UHGV virus genome: UHGV-0075053
Length of the DNA: 26,455 nucleotides
Strand: one strand, 5' to 3'
Source of the DNA: a virus
A program made the position numbers and the translations under genes. The first letter of the stretch is position 1. The number at the start of each line of letters is the position of its first letter. The notes beneath the pieces were generated by a model that was given only the letters and a program-made list of their open reading frames with translations, made no database searches and was not told where the DNA came from. Shown piece by piece: positions 1-24,393 of the stretch.

Positions 1-41
1 GTGGGCCACGGAACCGGTACACCAACAGGCAATGCAGAGCC

Positions 42-67
42 TTCCCCCAAACCAACGTTTATCTCTC
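42..67. other. putative gix/pix-type recombination crossover site upstream of the invertase gene
   Basis: 26-bp TTCCCCCAAACCAACGTTTATCTCTC resembles the gix pattern TTCC..AAACC-NN-GGTTT (left half 9/12 vs gixL from memory); sits directly 5' of the invertase as in Mu gin and e14 pin. Confidence 0.35.
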
Positions 68-121
68 AAATCCTCCCCACATTATCTCAGTACTTTAACC
101 ACTCAAAAGGGAGTATTTTTA

Positions 122-694
122 ATGCTGATTGGCTACATACGTGTGTCAACAAATGACCAAAACACAGATTTGCAACGCAAAGCATTAATGTGCGCAGGAT
201 GTGAACAGATTTTTGAGGACAAAATGAGCGGAACCAAGTCGGAACGTCCAGGCCTGAAACGCGCTTTAAAGTGCCTTAAAAGAGGGGATACATTGGTGGT
301 CTGGAAGCTGGATCGGTTGGGTAGAAGAATGAAACACCTCATTGCTCTCACAGAAGAGCTACGCGCAAAAGGTGTCAATTTTCGCAGTCTGACGGATTCA
401 ATCGATACCAGCACTCCGATGGGAAGGTTCTTTTTTCATATGATGGGTGCACTGGCAGAAATGGAGCGTGAACTGATAGTTGAGCGCACGCTGGCAGGAC
501 TGGCTGCTGCGCGAGCACAAGGGAGAGTTGGAGGACGTCGCCCGAAACTGACGAAGGAGCAGCATGAGCAGATCGCAAGATTGCTCCAGAAAGGGTATGA
601 CAGAAAGCGGCTGGCAATTATCTATGATATTGGACTGTCAACGATCTACCGCTACCACCCTGTTGGGACTGTCATAACGCAACCTGAAATGTAA
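122..694 (+). CDS. pin: serine recombinase, DNA invertase (Pin/Gin/Hin/Cin family)
   Basis: Translation from ATG 122 (MLIGYIRVSTNDQNTDLQR...GDTLVVWKLDRLGR...) closely matches the e14 PinE N-terminal resolvase domain with catalytic Ser in YIRVST; C-terminal HTH region diverges. The ORF-track start at 32 is an upstream extension across the crossover site. Confidence 0.9.
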   Translation: MLIGYIRVSTNDQNTDLQRKALMCAGCEQIFEDKMSGTKSERPGLKRALKCLKRGDTLVVWKLDRLGRRMKHLIALTEELRAKGVNFRSLTDSIDTSTPMGRFFFHMMGALAEMERELIVERTLAGLAAARAQGRVGGRRPKLTKEQHEQIARLLQKGYDRKRLAIIYDIGLSTIYRYHPVGTVITQPEM

Positions 695-834
695 TTCTTT
701 TTCAAATAATGAAACGCCGCGTGGATGCCATTTATCGCACAAGATAGAGTGCATTTATCGCGCGGCGCATCATACAGCCCTTTAGCCTCCAGTTCTTCCG
801 CTTTGCTGTCTTTAATCATGCTGTACCTCACTGC

Positions 835-1260
835 TTAAAACGGTATTCCGTCCCCGTACGGATCATCGTGCTGGCCTGTCTGTTGTTTTGCCCTGTTCAG
901 TGCGTCAGTAGCCTGGCCCTGCTGGCCTTTTTTGCCGCCCGGTCGCGCCGTTCGCGCACTGATTACGCTGTCTGCGATGACCTGCCAGCCCTGCCGCGTT
1001 TCGCCGTTCTGGCCTGTCCACTGGCTTACCTGCATGTTACCCGCCACGCTCACCAGTTCGCCTTTCTGGTGTTTTGCCAGTGCGTCGGCCTGTCTGCCAA
1101 ACGCCAGGACGGATAACCACATCGTCGCCGTTCCGTCATCTGCCTGGCTGCATGGCAGGGGAACCGCCATACTCGCCATCGCCATTTGTGTTCCCTTGCT
1201 GGTGGTCTTTAACTGCGGGTCAGCCACCAGCCGCCCGTAAGCCGCTATCTGTGCTGTCAT
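835..1260 (-). CDS. SSB-like single-stranded DNA-binding protein
   Basis: OB-fold-like pattern (GRLVADPQL...TMWLSVLAFGRQADALAKHQKGELVSVAG...W) and Gly/Gln-rich tail ending DDPYGDGIPF, resembling the SSB acidic C-terminal tip; ATG at 1260 with GGAGAA upstream. Confidence 0.6.
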   Translation of the reverse strand: MTAQIAAYGRLVADPQLKTTSKGTQMAMASMAVPLPCSQADDGTATMWLSVLAFGRQADALAKHQKGELVSVAGNMQVSQWTGQNGETRQGWQVIADSVISARTARPGGKKGQQGQATDALNRAKQQTGQHDDPYGDGIPF

Positions 1261-1323
1261 GCTGTCTGTTCTCCGGTTTTAACGTTGATTGTTACGCTTG
1301 TTTACACCCTTATGGTGAAATTC

Positions 1324-1470
1324 TGCGGGTTATAATCGCACTTTTGCGGGTTATAACTGCCGTTTTGCGGGTTATTTTGGGTATTTTACGGGTTACGATT
1401 TTCCTGCCATTCCTTTAATAATCATATGGATACTGATTTATCCACAGAAATAACCCGCATAACCCGCAAA
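1324..1470. repeat. putative replication origin iterons of the satellite element
   Basis: Direct repeats TGCGGGTTAT(A) at 1324, 1345, 1366 and a degenerate copy at 1388, with exact 21-bp phasing; inverted copies ATAACCCGCATAACCCGCAAA at 1450-1470; lies between the ssb and primase genes. Confidence 0.6.
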
Positions 1471-1496
1471 ATTTTCACCCTACACGCGAGAAAAAA

Positions 1497-3623
1497 TTAA
1501 TCTTCTTCGCTTTCTGGCTGGAACATCAGCACGTAAAAAACATGCTGCTTCCCCCCAATTTTGCCGAGCGCCTTTTTCTTGTAACGGCGATCGTTACCCG
1601 CTTCCAGCATTCCGGCAGCACTCAACGCGCGGGCAAAGTGAGACGGATTAAATCCCTGTGCTATCTCACCCTCAAATACATGCGGGAACGTGTAAAAACG
1701 GAACTCGTCATCTTCGTTTCTGATACTCCCCTTTCTGTATCCGGCAAGCTCTTTAATCGGTAAATCACGCTCGTCAGAGTTGGGCCAGGGAAGGTATCTG
1801 CTGAATCCGAACGACGCTAAAAAAGCCTCTGCCTGTTCAACCATCTGTTTAAACTCCCTGTTACCCGTGCCGAACTCCTTCACCCAGGCATTAAAATTAT
1901 GCTGTATGGCATCGCGGCATTCCTGCTCATCCCAGCCAGTAACATGACCTGAAAGCACAAGCGCGGCCTCCAGTATGGCAAATCGCTCCCCCACACGGTG
2001 AACCTGTTCGCCGTAGCTCTCCGGTATCAGGTTGCGCCACCGCTCACGGCATGTCCTTACCGTGTCCTTTGCCTCCTGCTGGTGTTCTGCCAGCCATTTA
2101 ACCCACTCACGACCCGCCGCCCCGTGATTTGCTGTCCAGGCATCCTTTAACGCGTCTGCGTGCGCCTTTCCGGTGCTGTATTCGTGAAATTGCGTGGCTT
2201 TTTCCATCGGAACGTTAAGCAGGCGGACAAGCTGCCCCGCTTTGACTTTTATCCCCTCCGTTTTGAGGAATGTCTCAACGTCCATTTCTCCGGTGCTGAT
2301 TGCCACCGTTCGCCAGTGTTTTATCTCCCTGTTGCCGCCGTCCTTTGCCCCCTGTAATTTCCCGGAACCGTTAAACAGCGTATAGGCTGACGTGGACACC
2401 TCCCGCGCGTTTCCGGCCTGGCCTATTTCATCCAGGGGTAAAAGCCCGTCATTGTGTGCCTCTGCTTCGTTGGCGATACCTAACGCTGTGCCGTACCAGG
2501 TCAGCCGCTGCGCGTCCGGCTCTCCCCATAAACTTGATGCGATGTTCTGCGTTGTGGTCTTACCTGCCGATGACTGTTCGAAAAGATGTACCCCGAAGCC
2601 GTCAGCGCCCACCAGCCCGATTAATGGTGCGGATAACGATACCGCCACCCCCAGCATCATGGACGGATTACCACCAGCCAGTCGCGCCACGGTGTCGCGC
2701 CAGCCCTCCGCCGTTCCTGCCACGGAATAGCCATTAACAGCAGCAGTTTTTCCGGTAAACAGGACTGGCTTTTCGCAATCACCAATGACCGAACCGTCCG
2801 GCATGATGTACGCGCCAAAATGCCAGCCCGTTGTTGTGCTTAACTGCCATTCCTCATGGCTTCCGCTTAACTGCATCCAGTCAGCCAGGATTGCCCTGTA
2901 TTTACCGTTGGTTGTTACGTTCAGTCCGTGGTCTTTCAGCAGCCGCCAGCCGTCACGGTCGCCAATGCCACCGCACGGAACCGCCATTGTGATGACTTCA
3001 TGATTTGCTGGCTTTTTCCAGCGCATCACGCGGTAATGTTCTTTGCCGATTGTCCCCGTTCCCAGCAGTTCAAGCGGGGAACATAACCACGTCTCAGGCC
3101 GGATAATTTCGCCTGACTGCTTGTCCACTTTTGGCGTAACCCAGAAAACACCATCGGCGCGGCTTTCAACGCGGGGCTTTAATTCATCATCACCCGGGCT
3201 TTCTGTGATTTTTTTCTTTAAGGGCAACACCAGACTTTCCCCGCGCTCGTATTCGTCTTTGAGGCGAGGCAACTGGTCGGATAAATCCGCCGGGCTGGTG
3301 TCAGTTATCCCCGCGTATTCGTATACGGTCTTCACGCCAGCCACAGCCAGCAACGTGACGATCTGTGTAAGGCTACGTTCAGTGATGTGCCCTGCGCGGT
3401 AAATACGCACACACTGACGGCTATCATCAATAATTTGATAACCGGTAATATCTTTCAGGTGTTCATCTGACAGAACGACAGGCGGCACATTGTCGGCGGC
3501 AATATGCTTACCTGCCCATTCCTGCCACTCTTTCGCATGGCTCCACGCATCACTACCCGCAAAGATGATAACCTCCGTCATTTTGTCGGCTGGCTGGTGC
3601 TTTAAGTTTGGTGCGCGCTTCAT
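1497..3623 (-). CDS. primase/helicase-type replication protein of mobile elements (DUF927-like with P-loop)
   Basis: 708 aa; Walker-A-like SSAGKTTTQ; overall resemblance to primase-helicase proteins of E. coli integrative elements (from memory); start ATG overlaps the upstream gene stop (ATGA). Confidence 0.7.
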   Translation of the reverse strand: MKRAPNLKHQPADKMTEVIIFAGSDAWSHAKEWQEWAGKHIAADNVPPVVLSDEHLKDITGYQIIDDSRQCVRIYRAGHITERSLTQIVTLLAVAGVKTVYEYAGITDTSPADLSDQLPRLKDEYERGESLVLPLKKKITESPGDDELKPRVESRADGVFWVTPKVDKQSGEIIRPETWLCSPLELLGTGTIGKEHYRVMRWKKPANHEVITMAVPCGGIGDRDGWRLLKDHGLNVTTNGKYRAILADWMQLSGSHEEWQLSTTTGWHFGAYIMPDGSVIGDCEKPVLFTGKTAAVNGYSVAGTAEGWRDTVARLAGGNPSMMLGVAVSLSAPLIGLVGADGFGVHLFEQSSAGKTTTQNIASSLWGEPDAQRLTWYGTALGIANEAEAHNDGLLPLDEIGQAGNAREVSTSAYTLFNGSGKLQGAKDGGNREIKHWRTVAISTGEMDVETFLKTEGIKVKAGQLVRLLNVPMEKATQFHEYSTGKAHADALKDAWTANHGAAGREWVKWLAEHQQEAKDTVRTCRERWRNLIPESYGEQVHRVGERFAILEAALVLSGHVTGWDEQECRDAIQHNFNAWVKEFGTGNREFKQMVEQAEAFLASFGFSRYLPWPNSDERDLPIKELAGYRKGSIRNEDDEFRFYTFPHVFEGEIAQGFNPSHFARALSAAGMLEAGNDRRYKKKALGKIGGKQHVFYVLMFQPESEED

Positions 3624-3934
3624 TTTGCCTTTCTCCGTTCACGAATAATTTCACGTACTGCCTTAATGCGTTCCATACCTGTAACGCGCATGATTCTGTC
3701 GATGTCGCTTAAGTTCGCTGGTGGTGCTTTGCTTACCAGGGTGAATTCACTCTCAAAACGCATATGTGACGACACGCAGGGATGCGCATAACCTTCGCGG
3801 ATATAGGTCACGCGAAAATCATCGACGGTTTTAATCGTTATCGTGCTGCCGTATTTATCCTGGAAAATATCGCCGGGGCGGATTTCAGGCCGAGCGGAGC
3901 CGCTGGCAGTAAAGCCAGAATTTTTCTTTTTCAT
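3620..3934 (-). CDS. hypothetical protein (104 aa), translationally coupled to the primase
   Basis: ORF with ATGA overlap onto the primase start; GGAG-type RBS; no recognisable motif. Confidence 0.5.
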   Translation of the reverse strand: MKKKNSGFTASGSARPEIRPGDIFQDKYGSTITIKTVDDFRVTYIREGYAHPCVSSHMRFESEFTLVSKAPPANLSDIDRIMRVTGMERIKAVREIIRERRKAK

Positions 3935-3940
3935 GTTTTT

Positions 3941-4159
3941 TTACTCCAGAGGCCGCTTTTTAGCGAAGAGTTCAATATCAGATGTCAGAGAAACCTGTGT
4001 ATTTGCCAGGTCTAACAACAAAGAAATAAGAATTTCCTCTCTGCTATCTGATTTATCGGTGCTAAGGCTGTTCATCCACATATTGACGACTTCCCTGATT
4101 TTTTTCGCAGAGTGCATGGCTTCAAATGCCAGGTCTTCAATATCATGTTTATTTCGCAT
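3941..4159 (-). CDS. hypothetical small protein (start uncertain, 72-94 aa)
   Basis: ORF in the same operon; internal Met at 4159 gives minimal overlap with the upstream gene. Confidence 0.4.
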   Translation of the reverse strand: MRNKHDIEDLAFEAMHSAKKIREVVNMWMNSLSTDKSDSREEILISLLLDLANTQVSLTSDIELFAKKRPLE

Positions 4160-4361
4160 AATCGCCCCCGCGTAACTGGTCTGCACTAACACCCGATTTA
4201 GTGAGCATTTCAGAAAATCCCGCAAGAGTGCTGATAAATTCGTTTTCCATTAAACGGCACTGGCATTTAACCCGGCCTTTTTCCAGATACACCAGTACGC
4301 ACCCCGTATAATCTGACGGCACATTCAGCACTACAGATAAGTGCGCTTCATTATTATTCAT
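4149..4361 (-). CDS. hypothetical small protein (70 aa)
   Basis: ORF in the minus-strand operon; start overlaps the stop of the upstream gene. Confidence 0.4.
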   Translation of the reverse strand: MNNNEAHLSVVLNVPSDYTGCVLVYLEKGRVKCQCRLMENEFISTLAGFSEMLTKSGVSADQLRGGDYAK

Positions 4362-4590
4362 GGCTCACCACCTCCATATCAGCCATGATAATTTTGCTGG
4401 CCTCATTCAGTGCCATATCAGCACTAAGTTGCATTACAGCCAGTGAATGAGGAACGAAAGCCCCGGCATATTCTGTTTCGCTGGTGGCGTGCTTATGCGC
4501 CTTGTCTGCGATAACAGAAATATCAATCAGCGCGTGCATCAGCGTTTTGATGGCTTCGGCGGCTGCGTCCGGACGGGTGTTATTGCACAT
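4354..4590 (-). CDS. hypothetical small protein (78 aa)
   Basis: ORF in the operon; its ATG at 4588-4590 overlaps the stop of the upstream 68-aa gene. Confidence 0.45.
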   Translation of the reverse strand: MCNNTRPDAAAEAIKTLMHALIDISVIADKAHKHATSETEYAGAFVPHSLAVMQLSADMALNEASKIIMADMEVVSHE

Positions 4591-4786
4591 GGAGCACCCC
4601 CTGACGAATACGGGCGGCGAATACCATCACGCAGCCAGCCGGGGATTGCTGGCGTGCTTCCTGTTCGCTGGTGGCCACGATGTGAATCACGCGCGGTTGT
4701 GCGGTGCTCAGGGCGATAAAACGCCAGATGTATTTATTCAGGTTGTGCGAGTCCCGCCCTTGCGGGTGTGTGGTATGATTTCTCAT
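4580..4786 (-). CDS. hypothetical small protein (68 aa), first gene of the leftward satellite operon
   Basis: ATG at 4786 preceded by GAGGT RBS; located just downstream of the palindromic operator region; the longer 301-aa ORF-track version is judged an artefact. Confidence 0.5.
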   Translation of the reverse strand: MRNHTTHPQGRDSHNLNKYIWRFIALSTAQPRVIHIVATSEQEARQQSPAGCVMVFAARIRQGVLHVQ

Positions 4787-4863
4787 AGCTACCTCGATAC
4801 TCTTGCTATCGTTGGTGGTTAGACGCCCTGCATGTGTTGCGAGCACTGCGGGGCGTTGCTTAA

Positions 4864-4964
4864 TTTGAGTGACAAAACTCAAACTGTGCGCACAGATTAA
4901 AATCATGTGTGCGCACATGTCAATACTTAACATCTCATTTTTTTTGCTGTATTGTGTGCGCCCA
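4864..4964. promoter_or_regulatory. divergent promoter/operator region with TGTGCGCACA palindromes
   Basis: 7-bp inverted repeat TTTGAGT-N6-ACTCAAA (4864-4883); 12-bp perfect palindrome CTGTGCGCACAG (4884-4895); second TGTGCGCACA core (4908-4917); degenerate copy TGTGTGCGCCCA (4953-4964); between divergent genes at 4786 and 4992. Confidence 0.6.
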
Positions 4965-4991
4965 TAAAGTCCATTTAAGTGAGGTGCATCA

Positions 4992-5189
4992 ATGTCTAGC
5001 GGTAACACAAACAACAAATCAGCAAAGAAAAATATTCGATTCCCACATGAGCTTATAGATGGGATTGATGCCAGCGTTGAACAAGAAAAATTAACTAATC
5101 CTAGTGCTAATTTTTCCGCATGGGTCTTAGATGCCTGTGGACGCAAATTAAAATATGAACAGCGCCGGAAGGCCAAAGAATCAGAATAA
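4992..5189 (+). CDS. ribbon-helix-helix (Arc/CopG-like) putative transcriptional regulator
   Basis: 65 aa; KNIRFPHELIDGIDASV...ANFSAWVLDAC fits a beta-strand plus two-helix RHH pattern; GTGAGGTG RBS 6 nt before ATG; directly downstream of the palindromic operators. Confidence 0.55.
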   Translation: MSSGNTNNKSAKKNIRFPHELIDGIDASVEQEKLTNPSANFSAWVLDACGRKLKYEQRRKAKESE

Positions 5190-5231
5190 TCACTATCAGC
5201 GCCGTGGTGTGAGTAACTACGGCGCATTGCT

Positions 5232-5420
5232 ATGCAGGACAACACAATGACCGATAAAGAATTGACCAAAACATTATCACCGACACGGAAAAGACGGCGC
5301 AGAAAGATAGAGCATGAATCAGAAAGATTCGCACCTTGTTCGTTTGCTCTTGAGAAATTCCTTAAAGAGCGCAGGAAAAAGCTCTCGTTGCAAACCTTGG
5401 AACGAACCAAATCTGACTGA
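5232..5420 (+). CDS. hypothetical small basic protein (start 5232 or 5247)
   Basis: ORF downstream of the RHH gene on the same strand; Arg/Lys-rich; no recognisable motif. Confidence 0.35.
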   Translation: MQDNTMTDKELTKTLSPTRKRRRRKIEHESERFAPCSFALEKFLKERRKKLSLQTLERTKSD

Positions 5421-5611
5421 TCACATTGCCCACCAGCCGCAAATGTGGCATTGTTGGTGATGCTTTTGTTTTCCCTTGTTCCCACTGGCTACCCTTTTGC
5501 GGTCGCCTTTGTTTTGCCTGTTATCCGGCAATAGTGGCGCTTCGTCACCTGTCTGATATAATTCCACTGCTTATATTCATTTTTTGCGCAGTAGGTTAAT
5601 TGTTCGCAAGG

Positions 5612-5642
5612 GCGCTCCGGCAACGGGGCGCTTTTTGTTTTT
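5612..5642 (+). terminator. rho-independent terminator
   Basis: Stem GCGCTCC/GGGGCGC with 6-nt loop followed by TTTTTGTTTTT. Confidence 0.55.
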
Positions 5643-5800
5643 ACCCACCAGCACAATAAAAATCTTCATTTTCCATTTTTGTAAAATTTCATGCTTTCCG
5701 GACGACTGGTCATATGTCATTTTTTAGCAGAAGATTTTGCCTTGCTGGTGGGTAGCTTCCCGGTCAACACGATGTACCGTATAATCAACACCGCGTGTGG

Positions 5801-6382
5801 TTACTGAATACGCTCACCAAAGTAAAACTCAGGCTGGTATTCACGTATCAGCCTTTTTTCTTCTTCCTCCAGCTCACGCTTTTTGCGCTTACATGCCTGT
5901 AGCTCCCTCCCCTTCTCGCTGGCACTTATCTGATATTGCTCTTTGCGGCGGGAAAAATCCTGTAATGCGCCCCACGGGATACCATAAGCCCCCGTTTTTC
6001 TGATACCCGGTATCACATTTCTGAATACCCAGTTACTGAAACGATGGGCGAACGTGCCAGGAGTAGCAGCTTTGCGACTTCTGGCAATCAGCTTGTAAAA
6101 GCCAGATTCAGAAACGACGCTATGATTTGGATTTCCGCGAATACCGTAAGTTAAAGTTACGGTATTACTTTCATCATCATCCAGAGCTTGCAACGCCATG
6201 CGTGAATTGGATAATTCAAGCGCCGCACAAACATCCTTTGCAACAAACCACGGATCGCCGTTCAGATACACCACACGAACATCCACGCCATCAAAACGTA
6301 GAACGACCTGATCACGAATATCGCAGAATTTTTTCACTGGACGTGCATTCCCCTTGCCCATCATGGCAATATTTTTATTCAT
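5801..6382 (-). CDS. Bro-N domain protein (phage antirepressor-like)
   Basis: N-terminal VRVVYLNGDPWFVAKDVCAALEL motif typical of the Bro-N family; ATG at 6382 with GAGGTAG RBS (ORF-track start at 6385 is GTG). Confidence 0.65.
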   Translation of the reverse strand: MNKNIAMMGKGNARPVKKFCDIRDQVVLRFDGVDVRVVYLNGDPWFVAKDVCAALELSNSRMALQALDDDESNTVTLTYGIRGNPNHSVVSESGFYKLIARSRKAATPGTFAHRFSNWVFRNVIPGIRKTGAYGIPWGALQDFSRRKEQYQISASEKGRELQACKRKKRELEEEEKRLIREYQPEFYFGERIQ

Positions 6383-6401
6383 CACTTTCTACCTCACATA
6401 C

Positions 6402-6429
6402 AAAAAACCCCGCATTGCGTGGTGCGGGG
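6402..6429 (-). terminator. rho-independent terminator (minus strand)
   Basis: Stem CCCCGCA/TGCGGGG with 8-nt loop; T-run on the minus strand (A-run 6402-6407 on plus). Confidence 0.55.
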
Positions 6430-6439
6430 TTGTCGGTAA

Positions 6440-6718
6440 TTACTTATTGGCGTTTTTGTATGGGCTGTTTACTTCCTTTACTCCTGGCGGATGCATAACC
6501 CACCAGAGCACATCAGAGAGCAACCAGGAAACAGACACTTTCCCTAAATGAGCACGAGCAGGAAATGCTCCCTCCTGTTCAAGTACCCAACGTCTGCTTC
6601 TTGAAAGCCCGGTACGATTGGCACACTCATGTTCGCGTATACGGCGATCATACGGTTCGCCATGCTCTTTCAGAATCTGAATGCGTTCTTCGGGTGTAGG
6701 ATAAATAAATTTTTGCAT
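6440..6718 (-). CDS. AlpA-family DNA-binding protein (second copy)
   Basis: ECANRTGLSRSRRWVLEQEGAFPARAHLGKVSVSWLLSDVLWWV resembles the AlpA/Phage_AlpA HTH pattern; start taken at ATG 6718 because the ORF-track start 6748 overlaps the upstream terminator. Confidence 0.55.
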   Translation of the reverse strand: MQKFIYPTPEERIQILKEHGEPYDRRIREHECANRTGLSRSRRWVLEQEGAFPARAHLGKVSVSWLLSDVLWWVMHPPGVKEVNSPYKNANK

Positions 6719-6730
6719 AAAAATATCACC

Positions 6731-6758
6731 TATAAAAAAACCCGCCAAAAGACGGGTT
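6731..6758 (-). terminator. rho-independent terminator (minus strand)
   Basis: Stem AACCCG/CGGGTT with 8-nt loop; T-run on the minus strand. Confidence 0.5.
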
Positions 6759-6781
6759 GATTATATCTCATTTAATTTAGC

Positions 6782-7015
6782 TCAGGGTTTCCATTCACCC
6801 TTTACCCATTCCAGCACCTCAGATAAGCGCCAGACTTTTGTTTGTGGGCCAATACATATTTTTCGTGGAAATTTTCCTTCCTTTTCAAGTAACGATCTGT
6901 GTCTCCTGCCAAGAGCGGTTAACCATGCACATTCATCTTCCTTAATCATCCTGTCGATTGTTTTATCATTTTCAAGTTCTTCACGCGTAACTATTTGAAT
7001 CATTACCGTCACCAC
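6782..7015 (-). CDS. AlpA-family regulator adjacent to the integrase (start uncertain: 7015, 7003 or 6949)
   Basis: ECAWLTALGRRHRSLLEKEGKFPRKICIGPQTKVWRLSEVLEWV matches the AlpA pattern; position immediately downstream of int as in P4-like islands. Confidence 0.6.
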   Translation of the reverse strand: MVTVMIQIVTREELENDKTIDRMIKEDECAWLTALGRRHRSLLEKEGKFPRKICIGPQTKVWRLSEVLEWVKGEWKP

Positions 7016-8204
7016 TAATTAGCTTATTCAGATAGTCATACCACCAATTCATAGCTTCTTTTTTTCTGTCCATATACTGGCTTCTGTTATAAACCCCGGC
7101 AACACCGCCTAATGTGTGCCCAAGCAACTGTTCAACCACATTATGTTCAAAACCATGATCACTTAGCTTTGTGGCAAACACTCTTCGCATATCATGCGCC
7201 GTCCATTTCTCCGAGTGTTTCATCCTTTTCCATGTCTTACCGATAGTTACGCTTGCCGTACACTGACGCATATCAAACCCAATCACATTTTCTTTGTTAC
7301 CTGTTATTTTTTTTAACGTAACTAACCAGTTAAACATGCCATCAGGAATCGGTCTGATTATTTCCCTGCCATTTTTGCTATGATCAGCGGGAACGCGCCA
7401 TAATTTCTTATCAAAATCCCACTCTCCCCAGGAGGACAGTAATACTTCTGACAGTCGACAACCAAAAACTACCAGGAAACGTAAAATAATTCGGTTTTCA
7501 TATGATAATTCGTGATTGTCATAATCAGTATTAATACTTCGCCATAAATCTCTGATTTCATCATCTGTTAAAACCCTGCTTCTTCGCGCAGACTTTTTTC
7601 CCACATCACAGACCTCAAGATCATCAATTTCATGACTAATCGCGTATTTTCTTACCCGACAAAATTTAAGCGCCTGTTTTGATATACGCAACAAAGCTCC
7701 GGCCTGTACAGGTGCTACTTTTTTTATTTTGTCAAAACACTTGATCCACATAGATATAGAGCAATCACTAAGTGGTACATGACCAATCACCGGATAAATA
7801 TGTTTACCAAAGCACTGCCTGATATGTTCTGCTCCCCTACGCTTATCCATTGCATAATTATCAAGCCAGTATTCAAGTGCCTCACGAACGGTAACAGGTT
7901 GCAAGGTGGCTTCCCGTTCAATTTTTATCTGAATCCGTGGATCTCTGCCCTCCGCAAGCCAGGTTCGACACTGATCGCGCATCTCTCTCGCTGATTTGAG
8001 ACTCAGATCAGGATATTTCCCAAGTGTCAGCCAGATGGGCGCGGTTCCCCTTCCCGCCAGTCTGTAAAAGAAAACAAAACTAACACATCCGTATTTACTG
8101 ACCCGTACCGAAAGCCCGTTACCATCAGCGATGGTTTCCTGCCTCTCACTCCTGCGCCCAAGCAGGGAACGAAGTTTTTTATCGCTCAGTTTGTTTAGCG
8201 CCAT
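6981..8204 (-). CDS. int: tyrosine integrase, P4-like
   Basis: N-terminal arm-binding pattern (LSDKKLRSL...GNGLSVRVSKYG...FVFFYR), C-terminal catalytic region with HxxR-like LLGH and conserved Tyr context; start set to ATG 8204 (MALNKLSDKK). Confidence 0.85.
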   Translation of the reverse strand: MALNKLSDKKLRSLLGRRSERQETIADGNGLSVRVSKYGCVSFVFFYRLAGRGTAPIWLTLGKYPDLSLKSAREMRDQCRTWLAEGRDPRIQIKIEREATLQPVTVREALEYWLDNYAMDKRRGAEHIRQCFGKHIYPVIGHVPLSDCSISMWIKCFDKIKKVAPVQAGALLRISKQALKFCRVRKYAISHEIDDLEVCDVGKKSARRSRVLTDDEIRDLWRSINTDYDNHELSYENRIILRFLVVFGCRLSEVLLSSWGEWDFDKKLWRVPADHSKNGREIIRPIPDGMFNWLVTLKKITGNKENVIGFDMRQCTASVTIGKTWKRMKHSEKWTAHDMRRVFATKLSDHGFEHNVVEQLLGHTLGGVAGVYNRSQYMDRKKEAMNWWYDYLNKLISGDGNDSNSYA

Positions 8205-8209
8205 GTGAT

Positions 8210-9403
8210 TTATAACCCGTTTTTGCAATACACAGTGCAATACACAAATGATGAAAACAGCCAGAACCTTCCAGAAAAAACAAAAACGACGAACAAGAAA
8301 AAATCTTTTTCTTTCATTTGGTTACTAAAAAAATCAGGACAGGTCGCACTGTTGTTACGGCGTGATGTTACTTTCTTGGTAAAAAAATTCACCCGCGCAG
8401 AGACCTGCTCCTTCGCTTTTTTCGCCAGACGACGCAGATCATCCCAGCGTTTACAGATGCCCAGGCCAGGATTCGCTTTCTGCCAGACCGTTTCATCAAA
8501 CGGATCATCTCCCTCATCAAGCGTGTAAATGATCGCAAAGTAAGAGTCGTCTTTTACAGCGCCCTCCACGTCGCTGTTATAGCCTCGCAATACCTTGATG
8601 GCGTAATCACGCTGCTCGTAACAAATCCCTTCCTTGTTAAAGCCAGCCGTGGTGATACCAAATAACAGGGACTGCAGACGGGCACCGGTTGCCGTTTCCA
8701 GAACGTCCCACACGTCGCGGGTTTTATGTGCATGCAGCTCATCAATAATGGCGCAGTGGATGTTCAGACCGTCCAGGTTGTTTGCATCCGAGGAAAGCGG
8801 TTCAAATTTTGATGCGCTCTGCTCCTGGTAAATCGCCAGCTTGTTGAAATCAAACAACCGCCCGAGTGTCGACCGGGCTTTTCTGACCATATTTTTGGCG
8901 TCTTCAAACACGATTCTGGCCTGGTCAAGCGTGGTTGCGGCTGAATACACCTCAGCTCCGCCTTCACTATCTGCCCCCGTCATATACAGACCGATACCCG
9001 ATGACAGGGTTGATTTTGCGTTTTTACGGGCAACTTCGTTGTATGCTGTCCGGAACCGGCGCACCATCACCGGGCGTCCACTGCCATCGCTGCGCATGAC
9101 AACTTCCCCGGTTTCTTCATTCACCAGCGGAATGACAAAACCAAAAATATTAATGAGGATAAACACATGCCAGTCCATCAACTCAATGGGCTGACCTGCC
9201 AGCGCCCCTTTCACATGGGGTACAAATTTGTAGAAATTAAGGATGTGCTGTGCACGAGGTTCACTGAAATAAATCCCCCGCTCTTCGCCGTACTTCAGAT
9301 CATCAAGAAAACGCTGGCAGGCCAGACGGACAAATTCGCCAGCAACAATTTCTCCTGCAACAACACGTTCGGCGTAGCGGATCCCGTCAGCCACTTTTGC
9401 CAT
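8210..9403 (-). pseudogene. terminase large subunit, N-terminal ATPase portion only (C-terminally truncated)
   Basis: N-terminal ~340 aa look terminase-like; the last ~55 aa (about 8210-8400) are low-complexity read-through; full-length TerL would be far longer; ends next to the integrase gene. Confidence 0.7.
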
Positions 9404-10728: not shown

Positions 10729-10908
10729 TCCCCGCTTTATCCAAATTGCATTGCCAGAATGCCGACAACAGACTGACATTCAAATCCTGACTACCTCCAA
10801 TAGGCTGAGCATCCACCTATATAGTTTTAATTTTCATCAATCCATTTAACTATCGTTTAATTGTTGTCACATAGGATTCTGCCATTTTTAACAATGCAGG
10901 ATAATAAG

Positions 10909-11202
10909 ATGAAAAAAATGTTGTTTTCTGCCGCTCTGGCAATGCTTATTACAGGATGTGCTCAACAGACGTTTACTGTTGGAAACAAACCGACAGCAGT
11001 AACACCAAAGGAAACCATCACCCATCATTTCTTCGTTTCGGGAATTGGACAGGAGAAAACTGTTGATGCAGCCAAAATTTGTGGCGGCGCAGAAAATGTT
11101 GTTAAAACAGAAACCCAGCAAACATTCGTAAATGGATTTCTCGGTTTTATTACTTTAGGCATTTATACTCCACTGGAAGCGCGTGTGTATTGCTCACAAT
11201 AA
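10909..11202 (+). CDS. bor: Bor/Iss-family outer-membrane lipoprotein
   Basis: MKKMLFSAALAMLITGCAQQTFTVGNKPTAV... matches lambda Bor essentially throughout (from memory); lipobox LITGC; opposite strand to the lysis genes as in lambda. Confidence 0.9.
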   Translation: MKKMLFSAALAMLITGCAQQTFTVGNKPTAVTPKETITHHFFVSGIGQEKTVDAAKICGGAENVVKTETQQTFVNGFLGFITLGIYTPLEARVYCSQ

Positions 11203-13151: not shown

Positions 13152-13226
<75 letters not shown>

Positions 13227-13342
13227 ATCCTGGAACTCGGCTACCTGATTTTCATTCTGCACTGAATATCGAGAGAAGCTCTCTTTATTCGAGCCGGTAA
13301 GCGAACTTATCGTCTCGGGCTACGCCATCGCGTGGCCGAAAT

Positions 13343-13427
<85 letters not shown>

Positions 13428-13435
13428 GGACTTGA

Positions 13436-13511
<76 letters not shown>

Positions 13512-13513
13512 AC

Positions 13514-13590
13514 TGGACCGCCACCGGGGACTCGAACCTCGCACACTCAACTTAAAGGGTTGACGCTCTTTCCTGATGAGCTAGTGGCGG
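13514..13590 (-). tRNA. atypical tRNA-like gene, anticodon UUU (Lys-like) with unusual anticodon loop CCUUUAA
   Basis: Cloverleaf can be drawn: acceptor CCGCCAC/GTGGCGG, D-arm GCTC/GAGC, anticodon stem TCAAC/GTTGA, T-loop TTCGAGT, 3' CCA; but C at position 33 and an A-C mismatch in the T-stem are non-canonical. Confidence 0.45.
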
Positions 13591-13591
13591 T

Positions 13592-13667
13592 TGGTGGCCC
13601 TTGCTGGATTTGAACCAGCGACCTGGCGATTATGAGTCGCTCGCTCTCACCACTGAGCTAAAGGGCC
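13592..13667 (-). tRNA. tRNA with CAU anticodon, ileX/ileY-like (tRNA-Ile2 type; Met not excluded)
   Basis: Reverse complement GGCCCTTTAGCTCAGTGGTGAGAGCGAGCGACTCATAATCGCCAGGTCGCTGGTTCAAATCCAGCAAGGGCCACCA resembles E. coli ileX from memory. Confidence 0.7.
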
Positions 13668-18345: not shown

Positions 18346-18501
18346 TTACTCCTCAGGTTCGTAAGCTGTGAAGACAGCGACCTCCGTCTGGCCGGTTCGG
18401 ATTCGTACCTCGCAGAGGTCTTTCCTCGTTACCAGTGCCGTCACTATGACGGTTAAACAGATGACGATCAGGGCGATTAACATCGCCTTTTGCTGCTTCA
18501 T
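18346..18501 (-). CDS. hokD: Hok/Gef-family small membrane toxin (HokD/RelF-like)
   Basis: MKQQKAMLIALIVICLTVIVTALVTRKDLCEVRIRTGQTEVAVFTAYEPEE matches E. coli HokD from memory; start set to ATG 18501. Confidence 0.9.
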   Translation of the reverse strand: MKQQKAMLIALIVICLTVIVTALVTRKDLCEVRIRTGQTEVAVFTAYEPEE

Positions 18502-19125
18502 AGCCTGCTTCTCCTTGCCTTTCGGCACGTAAGAGGCTAACCTAGATTTGCCGTTCATAGATTGAGCCTCAGATTAATGTTAAGCGTCTTGCAGGACGCG
18601 TAATGTTAACTGGGGCTTTTCTCTATCTGCCTTTGGTGTTCATGCCTGAGACAGATAGCCTCAAGCACCCGCAGCCATTCTACTTAACTCCCGTTACCTC
18701 GCCAATATAAAATCAATCAGAAAAGCGATCCATAAGAACAACAGCAAGACAATAAATTGCCATTACAGCTGCAATAGCCAGCGCACATTTGAGAACCAGC
18801 ACGACAACCTCCTGTATTGGACGTACACCAGTTCTGATAAATATGAGGCTGTCTCATCATTGATGAGATACAACTATTGGGTATAGTTTCTGTGATTTTG
18901 TTCTGTAGAAATGGAACACAACAACCAGTCACCACCAGCACTTCTTTAAATACGCCAAGTCCGACGCAAGCTAACCTTCTAGTCCGCTTTGAGCGAAAAG
19001 CAGACTGTCACGCGTTGAAGTTAATTGTATTACTTAGATAAACACTATCATTTTCCTGACGTTAAGTTGTATCTTTGATAGGATTAAAAAACGTATAGAT
19101 AGCTTATGCTACTGAGGGAATAAAA

Positions 19126-24013: not shown

Positions 24014-24342
24014 TAGCTAACCAACGAAGCTAAGGTTGGTAATTAAGGAGTTCTCCACGGGTGAAGTGGAGTGCGTGCGCCGGACACGGGTGAACATCCG
24101 GCACTGACAGTTTACTGAAAGGATATTTCTCTGAAAAGTCAGAGCATAACGCGAAAGTACACGGAGAAGCTCGTCTCTCTGTACTTTGTCGTTAAATTTA
24201 ATTCGACCGTGCGCTTCCGGTTGTGGCAATCCGCGAAATGGCGCGGCGGTAAGTATGGCGGGGTTATTCCTTCCCCTTGAGGACACCGGGTTGTCAGGCT
24301 GACCATACGCTTAAGTGACAGCCCCGCCACAATATCCATGTG

Positions 24343-24393
24343 TAGTCTTTGGTGGCATCAGTTCTACTCCGTGACTGCTCTGCCGCCCTTTTT
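24343..24393 (+). ncRNA. dicF: DicF small RNA (ends approximate)
   Basis: GGTGGCATCAGTTCTACTCCGTGACTGCTCTGCCGCCCTTTTT matches the 3' part of E. coli DicF including its terminator hairpin (from memory); about 175 nt upstream of dicB. Confidence 0.65.

Follow-up and report, generated by a model that had tools for sequence, protein, structure and literature searches.

The minus strand of positions 773–8382 of UHGV-0075053 (a 26,455-nucleotide virus genome, the whole of which is referred to here as the window) very probably carries the proximal half of a ~15.2-kb helper-embedded PICI (HE-PICI) that is integrated in the terL gene of a lambdoid prophage and is itself interrupted in perC, at 772/773, by a Mu-like prophage. 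Within this stretch lie attL; the integration, Bro, and replication zones; and the first perC codons. Sequence comparison places it in the catalogued site group A:Terminase_1:246 (Tommasini, Mageeney & Williams 2023; PMC10111431) and indicates that the satellite lies inside codons 341–343 of the helper terL, in the same direction as that gene. The helper is a Qin/DicF-type lambdoid prophage with HK97-type head genes. The original prediction of a phage satellite integrated within the terL of such a prophage, with a definable att core, was borne out, and the minus-strand components that it named (int, two AlpA genes, Bro-N, five small genes, an iteron origin, and ssb) were all found. HE-PICIs at exactly the same terL site are already known, and one of them, in E. 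coli 042, is nearly identical. The nesting of three elements, with a Mu-like prophage inside a satellite that is itself inside a prophage, is a curiosity; it is more certain than the coupling of TerL' to int considered below, and less interesting.

Full-length relatives of this element are ~15.2 kb long and 96%–99% identical to it over the shared part. After ssb, they continue with perC, a cf-PICI-type capsid gene, protease, portal, connector, HNH, terS, terL, attR, and the rest of the helper terL. Genes for the capsid, protease, portal, head-tail connector, HNH, TerS, and TerL are all present in the full-length relatives L001 and L002, and none is in the window. The capsid protein of the relatives matches the cf-PICI capsid PDB 9GYI over its full length (2.9e-155), and the satellite TerL has only 32% identity to the helper TerL. 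Full-length A:Terminase_1:246 members are probably also capsid-forming PICIs (cf-PICIs). Beyond attR, the relatives contain a C-terminal terL fragment (TerL_nuclease profile 58–283), followed by the helper portal, protease, and capsid genes. The E. coli 042 element, listed as Eco33.15.A_Terminase_1_246 (FN554766.1/2250958-2235714) with helper Eco33.57.zinT|mtfA (PMC10111431), has 96% DNA identity to the window block. Homology to the full-length satellites ends on the left at 773 (BLAST of the window versus L001). The left limit of 835 given in the original prediction is not an end of the element, which extends to 773, where foreign DNA interrupts it.

The break coincides exactly with the last base of the Mu-like prophage. 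By comparison with relatives, positions 1–772 (plus strand) are assigned to the right terminus of a Mu-like transposable prophage, outside the satellite, which ends in ...GCGCGGCGCATCA at 772 and includes a Gin/Pin-type invertase gene (122–694; Resolvase Pfam 7.4e-51). Prophage ends in a range of E. coli strains are 100% identical to this segment, and the chromosomal genes that they abut vary from strain to strain; these prophages lie in dgcQ or beside rstB, yeiB, flgJ, and others. In SCU-172, a 37.5-kb prophage with the same terminal bases and with Mor, gp16, Gam, and MuB- and MuA-like genes splits dgcQ as a clean insertion, leaving both dgcQ halves and a 5-bp duplication. Independent metagenome assemblies also contain the junction seen in the window, followed by 21 kb of Mu-like tail genes, and the longest contig bearing it (41.9 kb) ends inside the Mu-like prophage. 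Insertion of this prophage at the window edge would explain why the satellite seems to have no capsid genes, and its position in perC at 772/773 why only the proximal half is in the window. It had been proposed that the island replaced the distal late region; this is contradicted by the relatives, in which the C-terminal half of terL and the portal, protease, and capsid genes come directly after attR, and by the coincidence of the 772/773 break with the terminal nucleotide of the Mu-like prophage. A deletion running from ssb to a pin gene of the same prophage was also considered and rejected, because the terminus at 1–772 is found at many unrelated loci.

A simple insertion predicts that the Mu-like left end is joined to the satellite as ...GCCGCTCTCCGGTACAG followed directly by TTGATCAG..., after which come what remains of perC, the capsid module, and attR. 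The left end of the Mu-like prophage reads TTGATCAGACATGAGATAAATG..., and for a simple insertion the perC side of the left junction is predicted to be ...CTCTCCGGTACAG plus the remainder of perC, with TACAG at the junction. The predicted left-junction sequences were absent from JGI metagenomes, from GTDB genomes, and from IMG/VR when these were scanned by pattern, and an exact look-up of two predicted PerC-fusion ORFs in a protein collection gave no match. The right-junction control was also absent from GTDB and IMG/VR, the two collections where it was run; these collections therefore do not include this genome, and the left-junction negatives from them are uninformative.

It is unlikely that the distal half of the satellite and the helper head and tail genes were truly lost or relocated, for example when Mu-like replicative transposition led to an adjacent deletion or inversion, which would leave a dead stump never able to excise beside a permanently terL-defective helper. 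Such a loss would agree with the single visible junction, with the fact that no contig spans the Mu-like prophage, and with the searches for the left junction and fusion ORFs, although these negatives weigh little given that the control failed too. The HE-PICI paper also notes that many helpers appear truncated (PMC10111431). The SCU-172 copy of the same prophage, however, is a clean insertion with both target halves and a target duplication. Resident transposable prophages are usually simple insertions, which also counts against loss.

The zones of the interrupted HE-PICI appear in the window in the order Integration, Bro, and Replication, as in the published HE-PICI gene order, with a Late zone of only 15 perC codons before the Mu-like insertion. 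The int, alpA, and replication genes are on the same strand as HNH, terS, and terL'. The tyrosine integrase gene int (6981–8204, minus strand) encodes 407 aa (Pfam Phage_integrase 4.7e-19, Arm-DNA-bind_3 1.1e-17), of which 403 (99%) are identical in the catalogued E. coli 042 HE-PICI integrase; identity to the integrase of the founder, 11capE, is 50% over 396 aa. Pairwise identity to catalogued members was used for clade placement and assigns the integrase to the HE-PICI clade, A:Terminase_1:246 subclade. Two genes of the AlpA excisionase/activator family follow on the minus strand. The first, alpA-1 (6782–7015; Pfam Phage_AlpA 1.9e-9), overlaps the end of int; the gene caller starts it at 7003. 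A consensus scan found an intrinsic terminator-like hairpin after it (6739–6758, minus strand), which is also the terminator part of a chance Trp_leader match. The second, alpA-2 (6440–6748; Pfam Phage_AlpA 7.2e-10; PHROG 2790 "excisionase and transcriptional regulator" 1.7e-34), likely starts at 6718 and is followed by another such hairpin (6406–6431, minus strand; terminator scan). A Bro-N domain protein (5801–6385, minus strand; Pfam Bro-N 1.7e-17; PHROG 2593 "anti-repressor" 1.6e-80) occupies the region called the "Bro zone" in the HE-PICI paper (PMC10111431). No ORF in 5190–5800 has a Pfam match, and no P4-type immunity RNA was found in the Bro zone.

The only plus-strand gene of the element is a YlcI/YnfO-family (DUF3950) gene (4992–5189; Pfam DUF3950 1.6e-6; NCBIfam YlcI_YnfO_N 3.5e-16), with a plus-strand terminator downstream (5608–5635; terminator scan). 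It diverges from a leftward replication operon headed by a gene for an Icd-like small protein (4580–4786, minus strand; NCBIfam phage_ICD_like 5.5e-20; PHROG 6196 "transcriptional repressor" 3.1e-44), and the region between these two genes is plausibly a regulatory switch. The five small genes of this operon are the Icd-like gene, three ORFs called as genes in metagenome copies and assigned to PHROG families of unknown function (4354–4590, 4149–4361, and 3941–4159, minus strand), and a DUF4222 gene (3620–3934, minus strand; 2.2e-18). Next is a 708-aa DUF927 protein (1497–3623, minus strand; Pfam DUF927 5.4e-46). Its PDB matches are SaPI-type Rep helicases (8tch, "pathogenicity island protein," 1.9e-14; 5dgk, SaPI helicase), which support its identification as a replication initiator/helicase. 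This gene had been called a primase. A replicative role is supported, but no primase domain was detected among the Pfam, PHROG, and PDB matches of the protein, and its match to PHROG 1139 "DNA primase" covers only profile positions 284–894 (the C-terminal two thirds). In the iteron origin (1324–1468), an AT-rich spacer is surrounded by five exact copies of ATAACCCGCA; three of them are on the minus strand, spaced 21 bp apart, and the other two are on the plus strand. At one mismatch or fewer, ATAACCCGCA occurs 10 times in the window against 1.5 expected (0 of 100 shuffles reach 10), and the arrangement is repeated in NRZ96606 (L001 12553–12675). The block ends with ssb (835–1260, minus strand; Pfam SSB 3.8e-16) and the first 15 codons of the truncated perC (773–819, minus strand), whose start codon is at 819; the L001 PerC matches Pfam PerC at 3.1e-35.

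This gene content had been taken for a P4-like or classical PICI-like satellite without structural genes of its own, which replaced the distal late region and might carry accessory or defense cargo. That reading now appears very improbable. It is true that 835–8400 contains no capsid, tail, or terminase gene and that an Icd-like domain is present, as in P4. The absence of structural genes holds for this interval but not as a trait of the satellite, since its 96%–99% identical relatives carry a full capsid and packaging module and attR. Furthermore, the block runs up to a Mu-like terminus inside perC rather than to an att site, and the window contains a single copy of the doubled arm motif. The Icd-like domain is the sole P4 marker found; C4/isrK immunity RNA gave no match at the gathering threshold or at E ≤ 1. 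Defense cargo is likewise not supported, with no PADLOC match for any visible gene.

The attachment site was defined by aligning an intact attB (terL of phage Evi), the attL of the window, and the attR of NRZ96606. The three share a 7-bp crossover core, TTACCAA, that lies at 8376–8382 (minus strand) in the window, within helper terL codons 341–343, and is common to attR of the full-length relatives and intact attB in phage terL. The att identity listed for A_Terminase_1_246 is "ttaccaa" (Supp File 1, PMC10111431), and the window agrees base for base with the published A_Terminase_1_246 attL sequences (PMC10111431). The core was derived here independently, from the three-way alignment, and equals the entry in that paper (PMC10111431). 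In HE-PICI attP, a doubled motif, tgTGTATTGCantgTGTATTGCa, occurs ~81 bp upstream and ~132 bp downstream of the center (PMC10111431). The downstream copy, the P' arm doubled motif tgTGTATTGCactgTGTATTGCa that is diagnostic of HE-PICI attP, is present once in the window (8224–8246, minus strand; 0 expected). The doubled TGTATTGC motif starts 133 bp from the core center at 8379, and the published spacing to the attP center is 132 ± 2 bp (PMC10111431). The second copy is on the attR side in NRZ96606, where its distance from the core is 79–100 bp and varies with the reference point chosen. Of the att repeats anticipated near 8205–8400 and near 695–835, the former is the core at 8376–8382, while none was found near the latter. 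Direct repeats within the window were accordingly rejected as an att pair, since attL alone is present and the doubled arm motif occurs once. After excision, the predicted attB junction is ...GTGAATTTTTTTACCAAACACATGAATG... and the predicted attP is ...GAAATATTCTTACCAAGAAAGTAACATC....

The helper terL is cut at codon ~342, and its N-terminal 341 codons remain at 8383–9403 (minus strand; Pfam TerL_ATPase 2.3e-26 plus the start of TerL_nuclease). This terL' is 97%–98.5% identical to intact phage terL up to 8376. The distance from the end of terL similarity to the integrase start had been put at about 200 bp; the short gap is real but measures 171 bp (8376 to the int ATG at 8204). Comparison with uninterrupted relatives, as the original prediction had suggested, showed that terL is intact in phage Evi, in ten further phages, and in a near-identical prophage located at potC. 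In the eleven phage genomes and related prophages, an uninterrupted 585-aa terL is followed directly by portal, protease, and capsid. That the int-to-ssb block is instead an ancestral part of a lambdoid phage with continuous synteny, as its co-orientation with the late operon and the extension of the terL' frame to the int start might suggest, is refuted by these empty sites, by the 7-bp core common to attL, attR, and attB, and by the listing of an off-target chromosomal copy of this element (PMC10111431), and we consider it extremely unlikely.

From TerL', the reading frame continues for 55 codons across attL, to a stop at 8210–8212 that lies 5 nt upstream of the int ATG. The interval between terL' and int contains no predicted terminator, and int lacks a good Shine-Dalgarno sequence. 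Some members (NRZ96606 and the 042 type) have one additional T in a T-run, which joins TerL' and Int in a single 807-aa ORF; in the window, the T-run is located at ~8296–8307. These features raise the possibility, an unlikely one, that integrase expression in A:Terminase_1:246 is tied to translation of the interrupted helper terL. If functional, the coupling would be a termination-reinitiation or slippage device that makes excision of the satellite dependent on helper late-gene translation. Coupling as a general HE-PICI trait was rejected, because it was not seen in 11capE or in the Arsenophonus member of A:Terminase_1:246.

The literature on HE-PICIs and cf-PICIs suggests a life cycle for the satellite. 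When the helper is induced by the SOS response, Q-dependent late transcription would cross the lysis genes, HNH, terS, and terL' and continue into int and alpA. Int and AlpA may then recombine attL with attR at TTACCAA, releasing the satellite and restoring the helper terL. The satellite circle would be replicated by the DUF927 helicase with the iterons and SSB, and its late module would make small capsids to be completed with helper tails. Mitomycin C treatment leads, in the case of 11capE, first to excision of the composite, next to its replication, and finally to excision of the satellite; excision at predicted att sites has been demonstrated experimentally for 11capE only (PMC10111431). 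An insert of ~37 kb would part the replication and late modules of the window copy, destroy perC, and make the excised circle ~53 kb. Although int, alpA, and attL appear intact, this copy is probably immobilized, because a ~53-kb circle would not fit into satellite-sized capsids. Restoration of the helper terL would need excision of the ~53-kb composite, provided that the distal half has been retained. The finding adds little to the biology, as a near-identical HE-PICI at the same terL site is catalogued in E. coli 042. Its value is as a warning for annotation: a nested, interrupted satellite resembles an island without structural genes beside a "truncated" terminase, and satellite finders that require a late module would misclassify or miss such an element.

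Among known systems, Mu resembles the Mu-like prophage in several ways. The prophage has a terminal ...CA end, both of its ends carry repeated transposase-binding-like motifs, (G/C)GATAAATG, and in SCU-172 it is accompanied by a 5-bp target duplication. It is found inserted in many unrelated genes, has genes for Mor, Gam, and MuA/MuB-like proteins, and carries a Gin-type invertase beside the right end. The early region of the SCU-172 prophage is arranged differently from that of Mu, and the window holds only the last 772 bp. With P4, the satellite has in common the Icd-like domain and a replication helicase with an iteron origin, and window-type tyrosine integrases fall in a wider PICI/P4 clade (PMC10111431). 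Unlike P4, it integrates in a prophage gene and not a tRNA gene. The full-length relatives have no P4 capsid-size or Psu genes, and no other P4 marker matched among the visible genes in general searches, not specific to psu, sid, or delta.

Capsid-forming PICIs are represented by EcCIEDL933 (Alqurainy et al., bioRxiv 10.1101/2022.09.08.507074) and by the capsid structure PDB 9GYI (He et al., bioRxiv 10.1101/2025.02.11.637232). The full-length relatives share with them the capsid, protease, portal, connector, HNH, TerS, and TerL genes and the int-alpA front, and likewise have no tail or lysis genes. Cf-PICIs were defined, as a search criterion, by unique chromosomal att sites never occupied by prophages (bioRxiv 10.1101/2022.09.08.507074), whereas the att site of the window lineage is inside a prophage terL.

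The founder HE-PICI, 11capE (Eco567.11.E_Phage_cap_E_80, E. coli NRG857c), has AlpA, YlcI/YnfO, Icd-like, DUF4222, replication protein, and SSB genes in the same order, with the doubled motif near both of its ends, and both elements are embedded co-directionally in a helper late gene. It differs in its target (capsid gene E) and core (AACCCAAGCA), its length (11 kb), a late zone with capsid and decoration genes only, and a different primase family. The frame of the interrupted gene in 11capE stops 10 codons after the core, whereas that of terL' in the window continues for 55 codons, to the int start. The int-to-ssb gene order of the A:Terminase_1:246 group is the same as in the window, at 96%–98% DNA identity; the window copy differs in being interrupted in perC, with the late zone and attR outside the window, and from NRZ96606 also in a ~230-bp segment (4171–4400) that includes one small ORF. 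One member of the group, Eco33.15.A_Terminase_1_246 of E. coli 042, has the same terL codon, the same TTACCAA core, and the doubled TGTATTGC motif at the published spacing.

The native sequence of the helper terminase large-subunit gene (terL) ends at 8376 in the window, to the right of a minus-strand block at 773–8382; beyond it come a P27-type terS and then an HNH gene. Uninterrupted terL genes, 97%–98.5% identical to the window up to 8376, were identified in 11 phage genomes. Strain LSN03-016011/A carries, at potC, a near-identical prophage that provided the proposed comparison with an uninterrupted relative: its 585-aa terL is intact, with head genes directly after it. The att core was sought by aligning terL from phage Evi (attB), the window (attL), and NRZ96606, a strain with a full-length relative of the block (attR). 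All three share TTACCAA (8376–8382; terL codons 341–343), and the two cores in NRZ96606 are 15,280 bp apart. Because terL is intact in the phages and the potC prophage and the core is common to all three sites, the block is, from these alignments, an inserted element located in terL, in line with the original prediction of a satellite beside the terminase gene. That it is an ancestral part of one phage genome is refuted by the empty sites and the core. The C-terminal terL fragment of relatives begins at TerL_nuclease profile position 58, approximately where the native part ends in the window; the Pfam match itself reaches position 68, the extra few residues coming from the element-encoded tail. 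terL is thus split rather than truncated.

Scans against Pfam, PHROG, and NCBIfam, together with a listing of ORFs, confirm a co-directional minus-strand block containing the genes originally listed. These code for a tyrosine integrase (6981–8204), two AlpA proteins (6782–7015 and 6440–6748), Bro-N (5801–6385), an Icd-like protein (4580–4786), three small ORFs (3941–4590), DUF4222 (3620–3934), a 708-aa DUF927 replication protein (1497–3623), and Ssb (835–1260). A YlcI/YnfO-like gene (4992–5189, plus strand) is divergent. The putative primase is a replication protein resembling SaPI Rep helicases (PDB 8tch, 5dgk), but no primase domain was found in it, which makes replication initiator/helicase the more cautious label. 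The iteron ATAACCCGCA occurs in five exact copies, in inverted arrangement, between ssb and the DUF927 gene. With at most one mismatch, there are 10 matches in the window (1.5 expected), a number reached by none of 100 shuffles. In NRZ96606 the origin iteron (ATAACCCGC) is clustered again at the distal satellite end, between satellite terL and attR (4385–4537 of that locus; two copies per strand), in addition to the rep-ssb cluster. This second cluster may serve as another origin, bind Rep, or have a part in packaging. Window 4171–4400 is the sole segment of the block without megablast homology to NRZ96606, and one small ORF there has apparently been exchanged compared with other members. The ~600 bp at 5190–5800, in the Bro zone, contain only short broken ORFs with no Pfam or Rfam matches; RefSeq annotates a pseudogene at the matching region in relatives. 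A C4/isrK immunity RNA was sought in the block and not found. The suggestion of defence cargo gained no support, as a defence-system search returned no matches.

At least 80% of window 600–8600 is carried by 30 of 5,426 complete E. coli genomes at 94%–97% identity. In two of these, NRZ96606 and E. coli 042, the int-to-ssb block is followed by perC and two small genes, and then by major capsid, prohead protease, portal, head-tail connector, HNH, terS, and terL genes. The original view that the satellite lacks structural genes of its own is thus not supported. Nor is the view that it replaced the late region: beyond satellite terL, these genomes retain the rest of the interrupted terL (its C-terminal part) and then the helper portal, protease, and capsid genes. 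The relatives' capsid matches PDB 9GYI (2.9e-155), a capsid of capsid-forming PICIs (He et al.), and their own terL is only 32% identical to that of the helper. We infer on this basis that the lineage is both helper-embedded and capsid-forming.

Homology to full-length satellites ends at 773, 15 codons into perC. Window 1–772 is 100% identical to a prophage end that in other strains adjoins dgcQ, rstB, yeiB, flgJ, a fimbrial usher gene, and others. This Mu-like right terminus contains a Gin/Pin-type invertase (122–694). In SCU-172, dgcQ is cleanly interrupted by a 37.5-kb Mu-like prophage, with duplication of 5 bp; the prophage contains Mor, gp16, Gam, MuB-/MuA-like, P2/Mu-type tail, and Gin-type invertase genes. 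Its end, ...GCGCGGCGCATCA, is exactly the last bases before 773. The perC'::Mu-like junction recurs in separately assembled human-gut metagenome contigs, of which the longest reaches 21 kb into Mu-like tail genes, and is found in 0 of 5,426 complete E. coli genomes. Given the terminus, the stop in satellite homology, and the recurring junction, these comparisons indicate that a transposable prophage landed in satellite perC, which is why the structural genes are not visible in the window. Mu-like prophage, satellite, and lambdoid prophage form a three-level nesting. Resident Mu-like prophages are usually simple insertions. Since the SCU-172 copy is also one, simple insertion is very probably what happened here; a transposition-associated deletion or rearrangement is unlikely on the same two grounds. 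Junction scans of JGI metagenomes, GTDB genomes, and IMG/VR gave no match; the right-junction control, run in GTDB and IMG/VR, was also negative, and exact look-up of predicted fusion ORFs gave none.

All helper late genes visible in the window (holin, lysozyme, Rz, HNH, terS, and the N-terminal terL part, terL') lie on the same strand as int, alpA, and the replication genes of the satellite, with no terminator predicted between terL' and int. The published cis-regulatory model therefore fits. Helper late transcription would read into int and alpA, excision at TTACCAA would restore terL, and the satellite would replicate from its iterons and package itself in its own small capsids with helper tails. 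Excision timing has been demonstrated experimentally only for 11capE, the founder helper-embedded PICI (HE-PICI) (PMC10111431). Intrinsic terminator-like hairpins directly after each alpA (6739–6758 and 6406–6431, minus) suggest antitermination-dependent read-through into bro and replication genes. A strong plus-strand terminator (5608–5635) follows the ylcI-like gene at a distance of ~420 bp and suggests a ~680-nt rightward transcript. As the insert would destroy perC and make the excised circle ~53 kb, the satellite in the window is probably no longer transferable. Through attL (8204–8382), the terL' frame meets no stop for 55 codons; its stop codon, at 8210–8212, lies 5 nt before the int ATG, and int lacks a good SD. 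One extra T in a T-run in NRZ96606 (19170–19392 of its locus) creates a single 807-aa TerL'-Int ORF. No such frame link was found in 11capE or the Arsenophonus member, and the arrangement may be coincidence or lineage-specific coupling. This possible translational link and the triple nesting are minor curiosities.

DicF (24337–24388, plus, 58.3 bits) and sok antitoxin RNA of hokD (18496–18670, minus, 110 bits) support a Qin-type lambdoid early region in the helper. Five tRNA genes (13152–13667, minus) lie upstream of the lysis genes: Gly-TCC, Tyr-GTA, Thr-TGT, Lys-TTT, and a CAT anticodon called Met (Ile in relatives). The closest relative, LSN03-016011/A, has four, without the Tyr gene. An iss/bor-type serum-survival lipoprotein gene (~10861–11202, plus), with 98% homology to annotated iss of NRZ96606, sits between the helper HNH and lysis genes.

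The satellite belongs to an already known group, the HE-PICIs described and catalogued by Tommasini, Mageeney & Williams (NAR Genom Bioinform 2023, PMC10111431). These have one integrase clade, 14 target sites in prophage late genes, and four zones (Integration, Bro, Replication, and Late). The 042 element is listed there as Eco33.15.A_Terminase_1_246 (Supplementary File 1), where its att identity is given as 'ttaccaa' and its helper as Eco33.57.zinT|mtfA, and published attL sequences of the A_Terminase_1_246 group equal the window base for base. In HE-PICIs, the attP centre has the doubled motif tgTGTATTGCantgTGTATTGCa on both sides, ~81 bp away upstream and ~132 bp away downstream (PMC10111431); NRZ96606 has both copies, whereas the window has one (8224–8246), 133 bp from the core centre. 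The window integrase is identical to that of 042 at 403 of 407 positions and 50% identical to that of 11capE from E. coli NRG857c.
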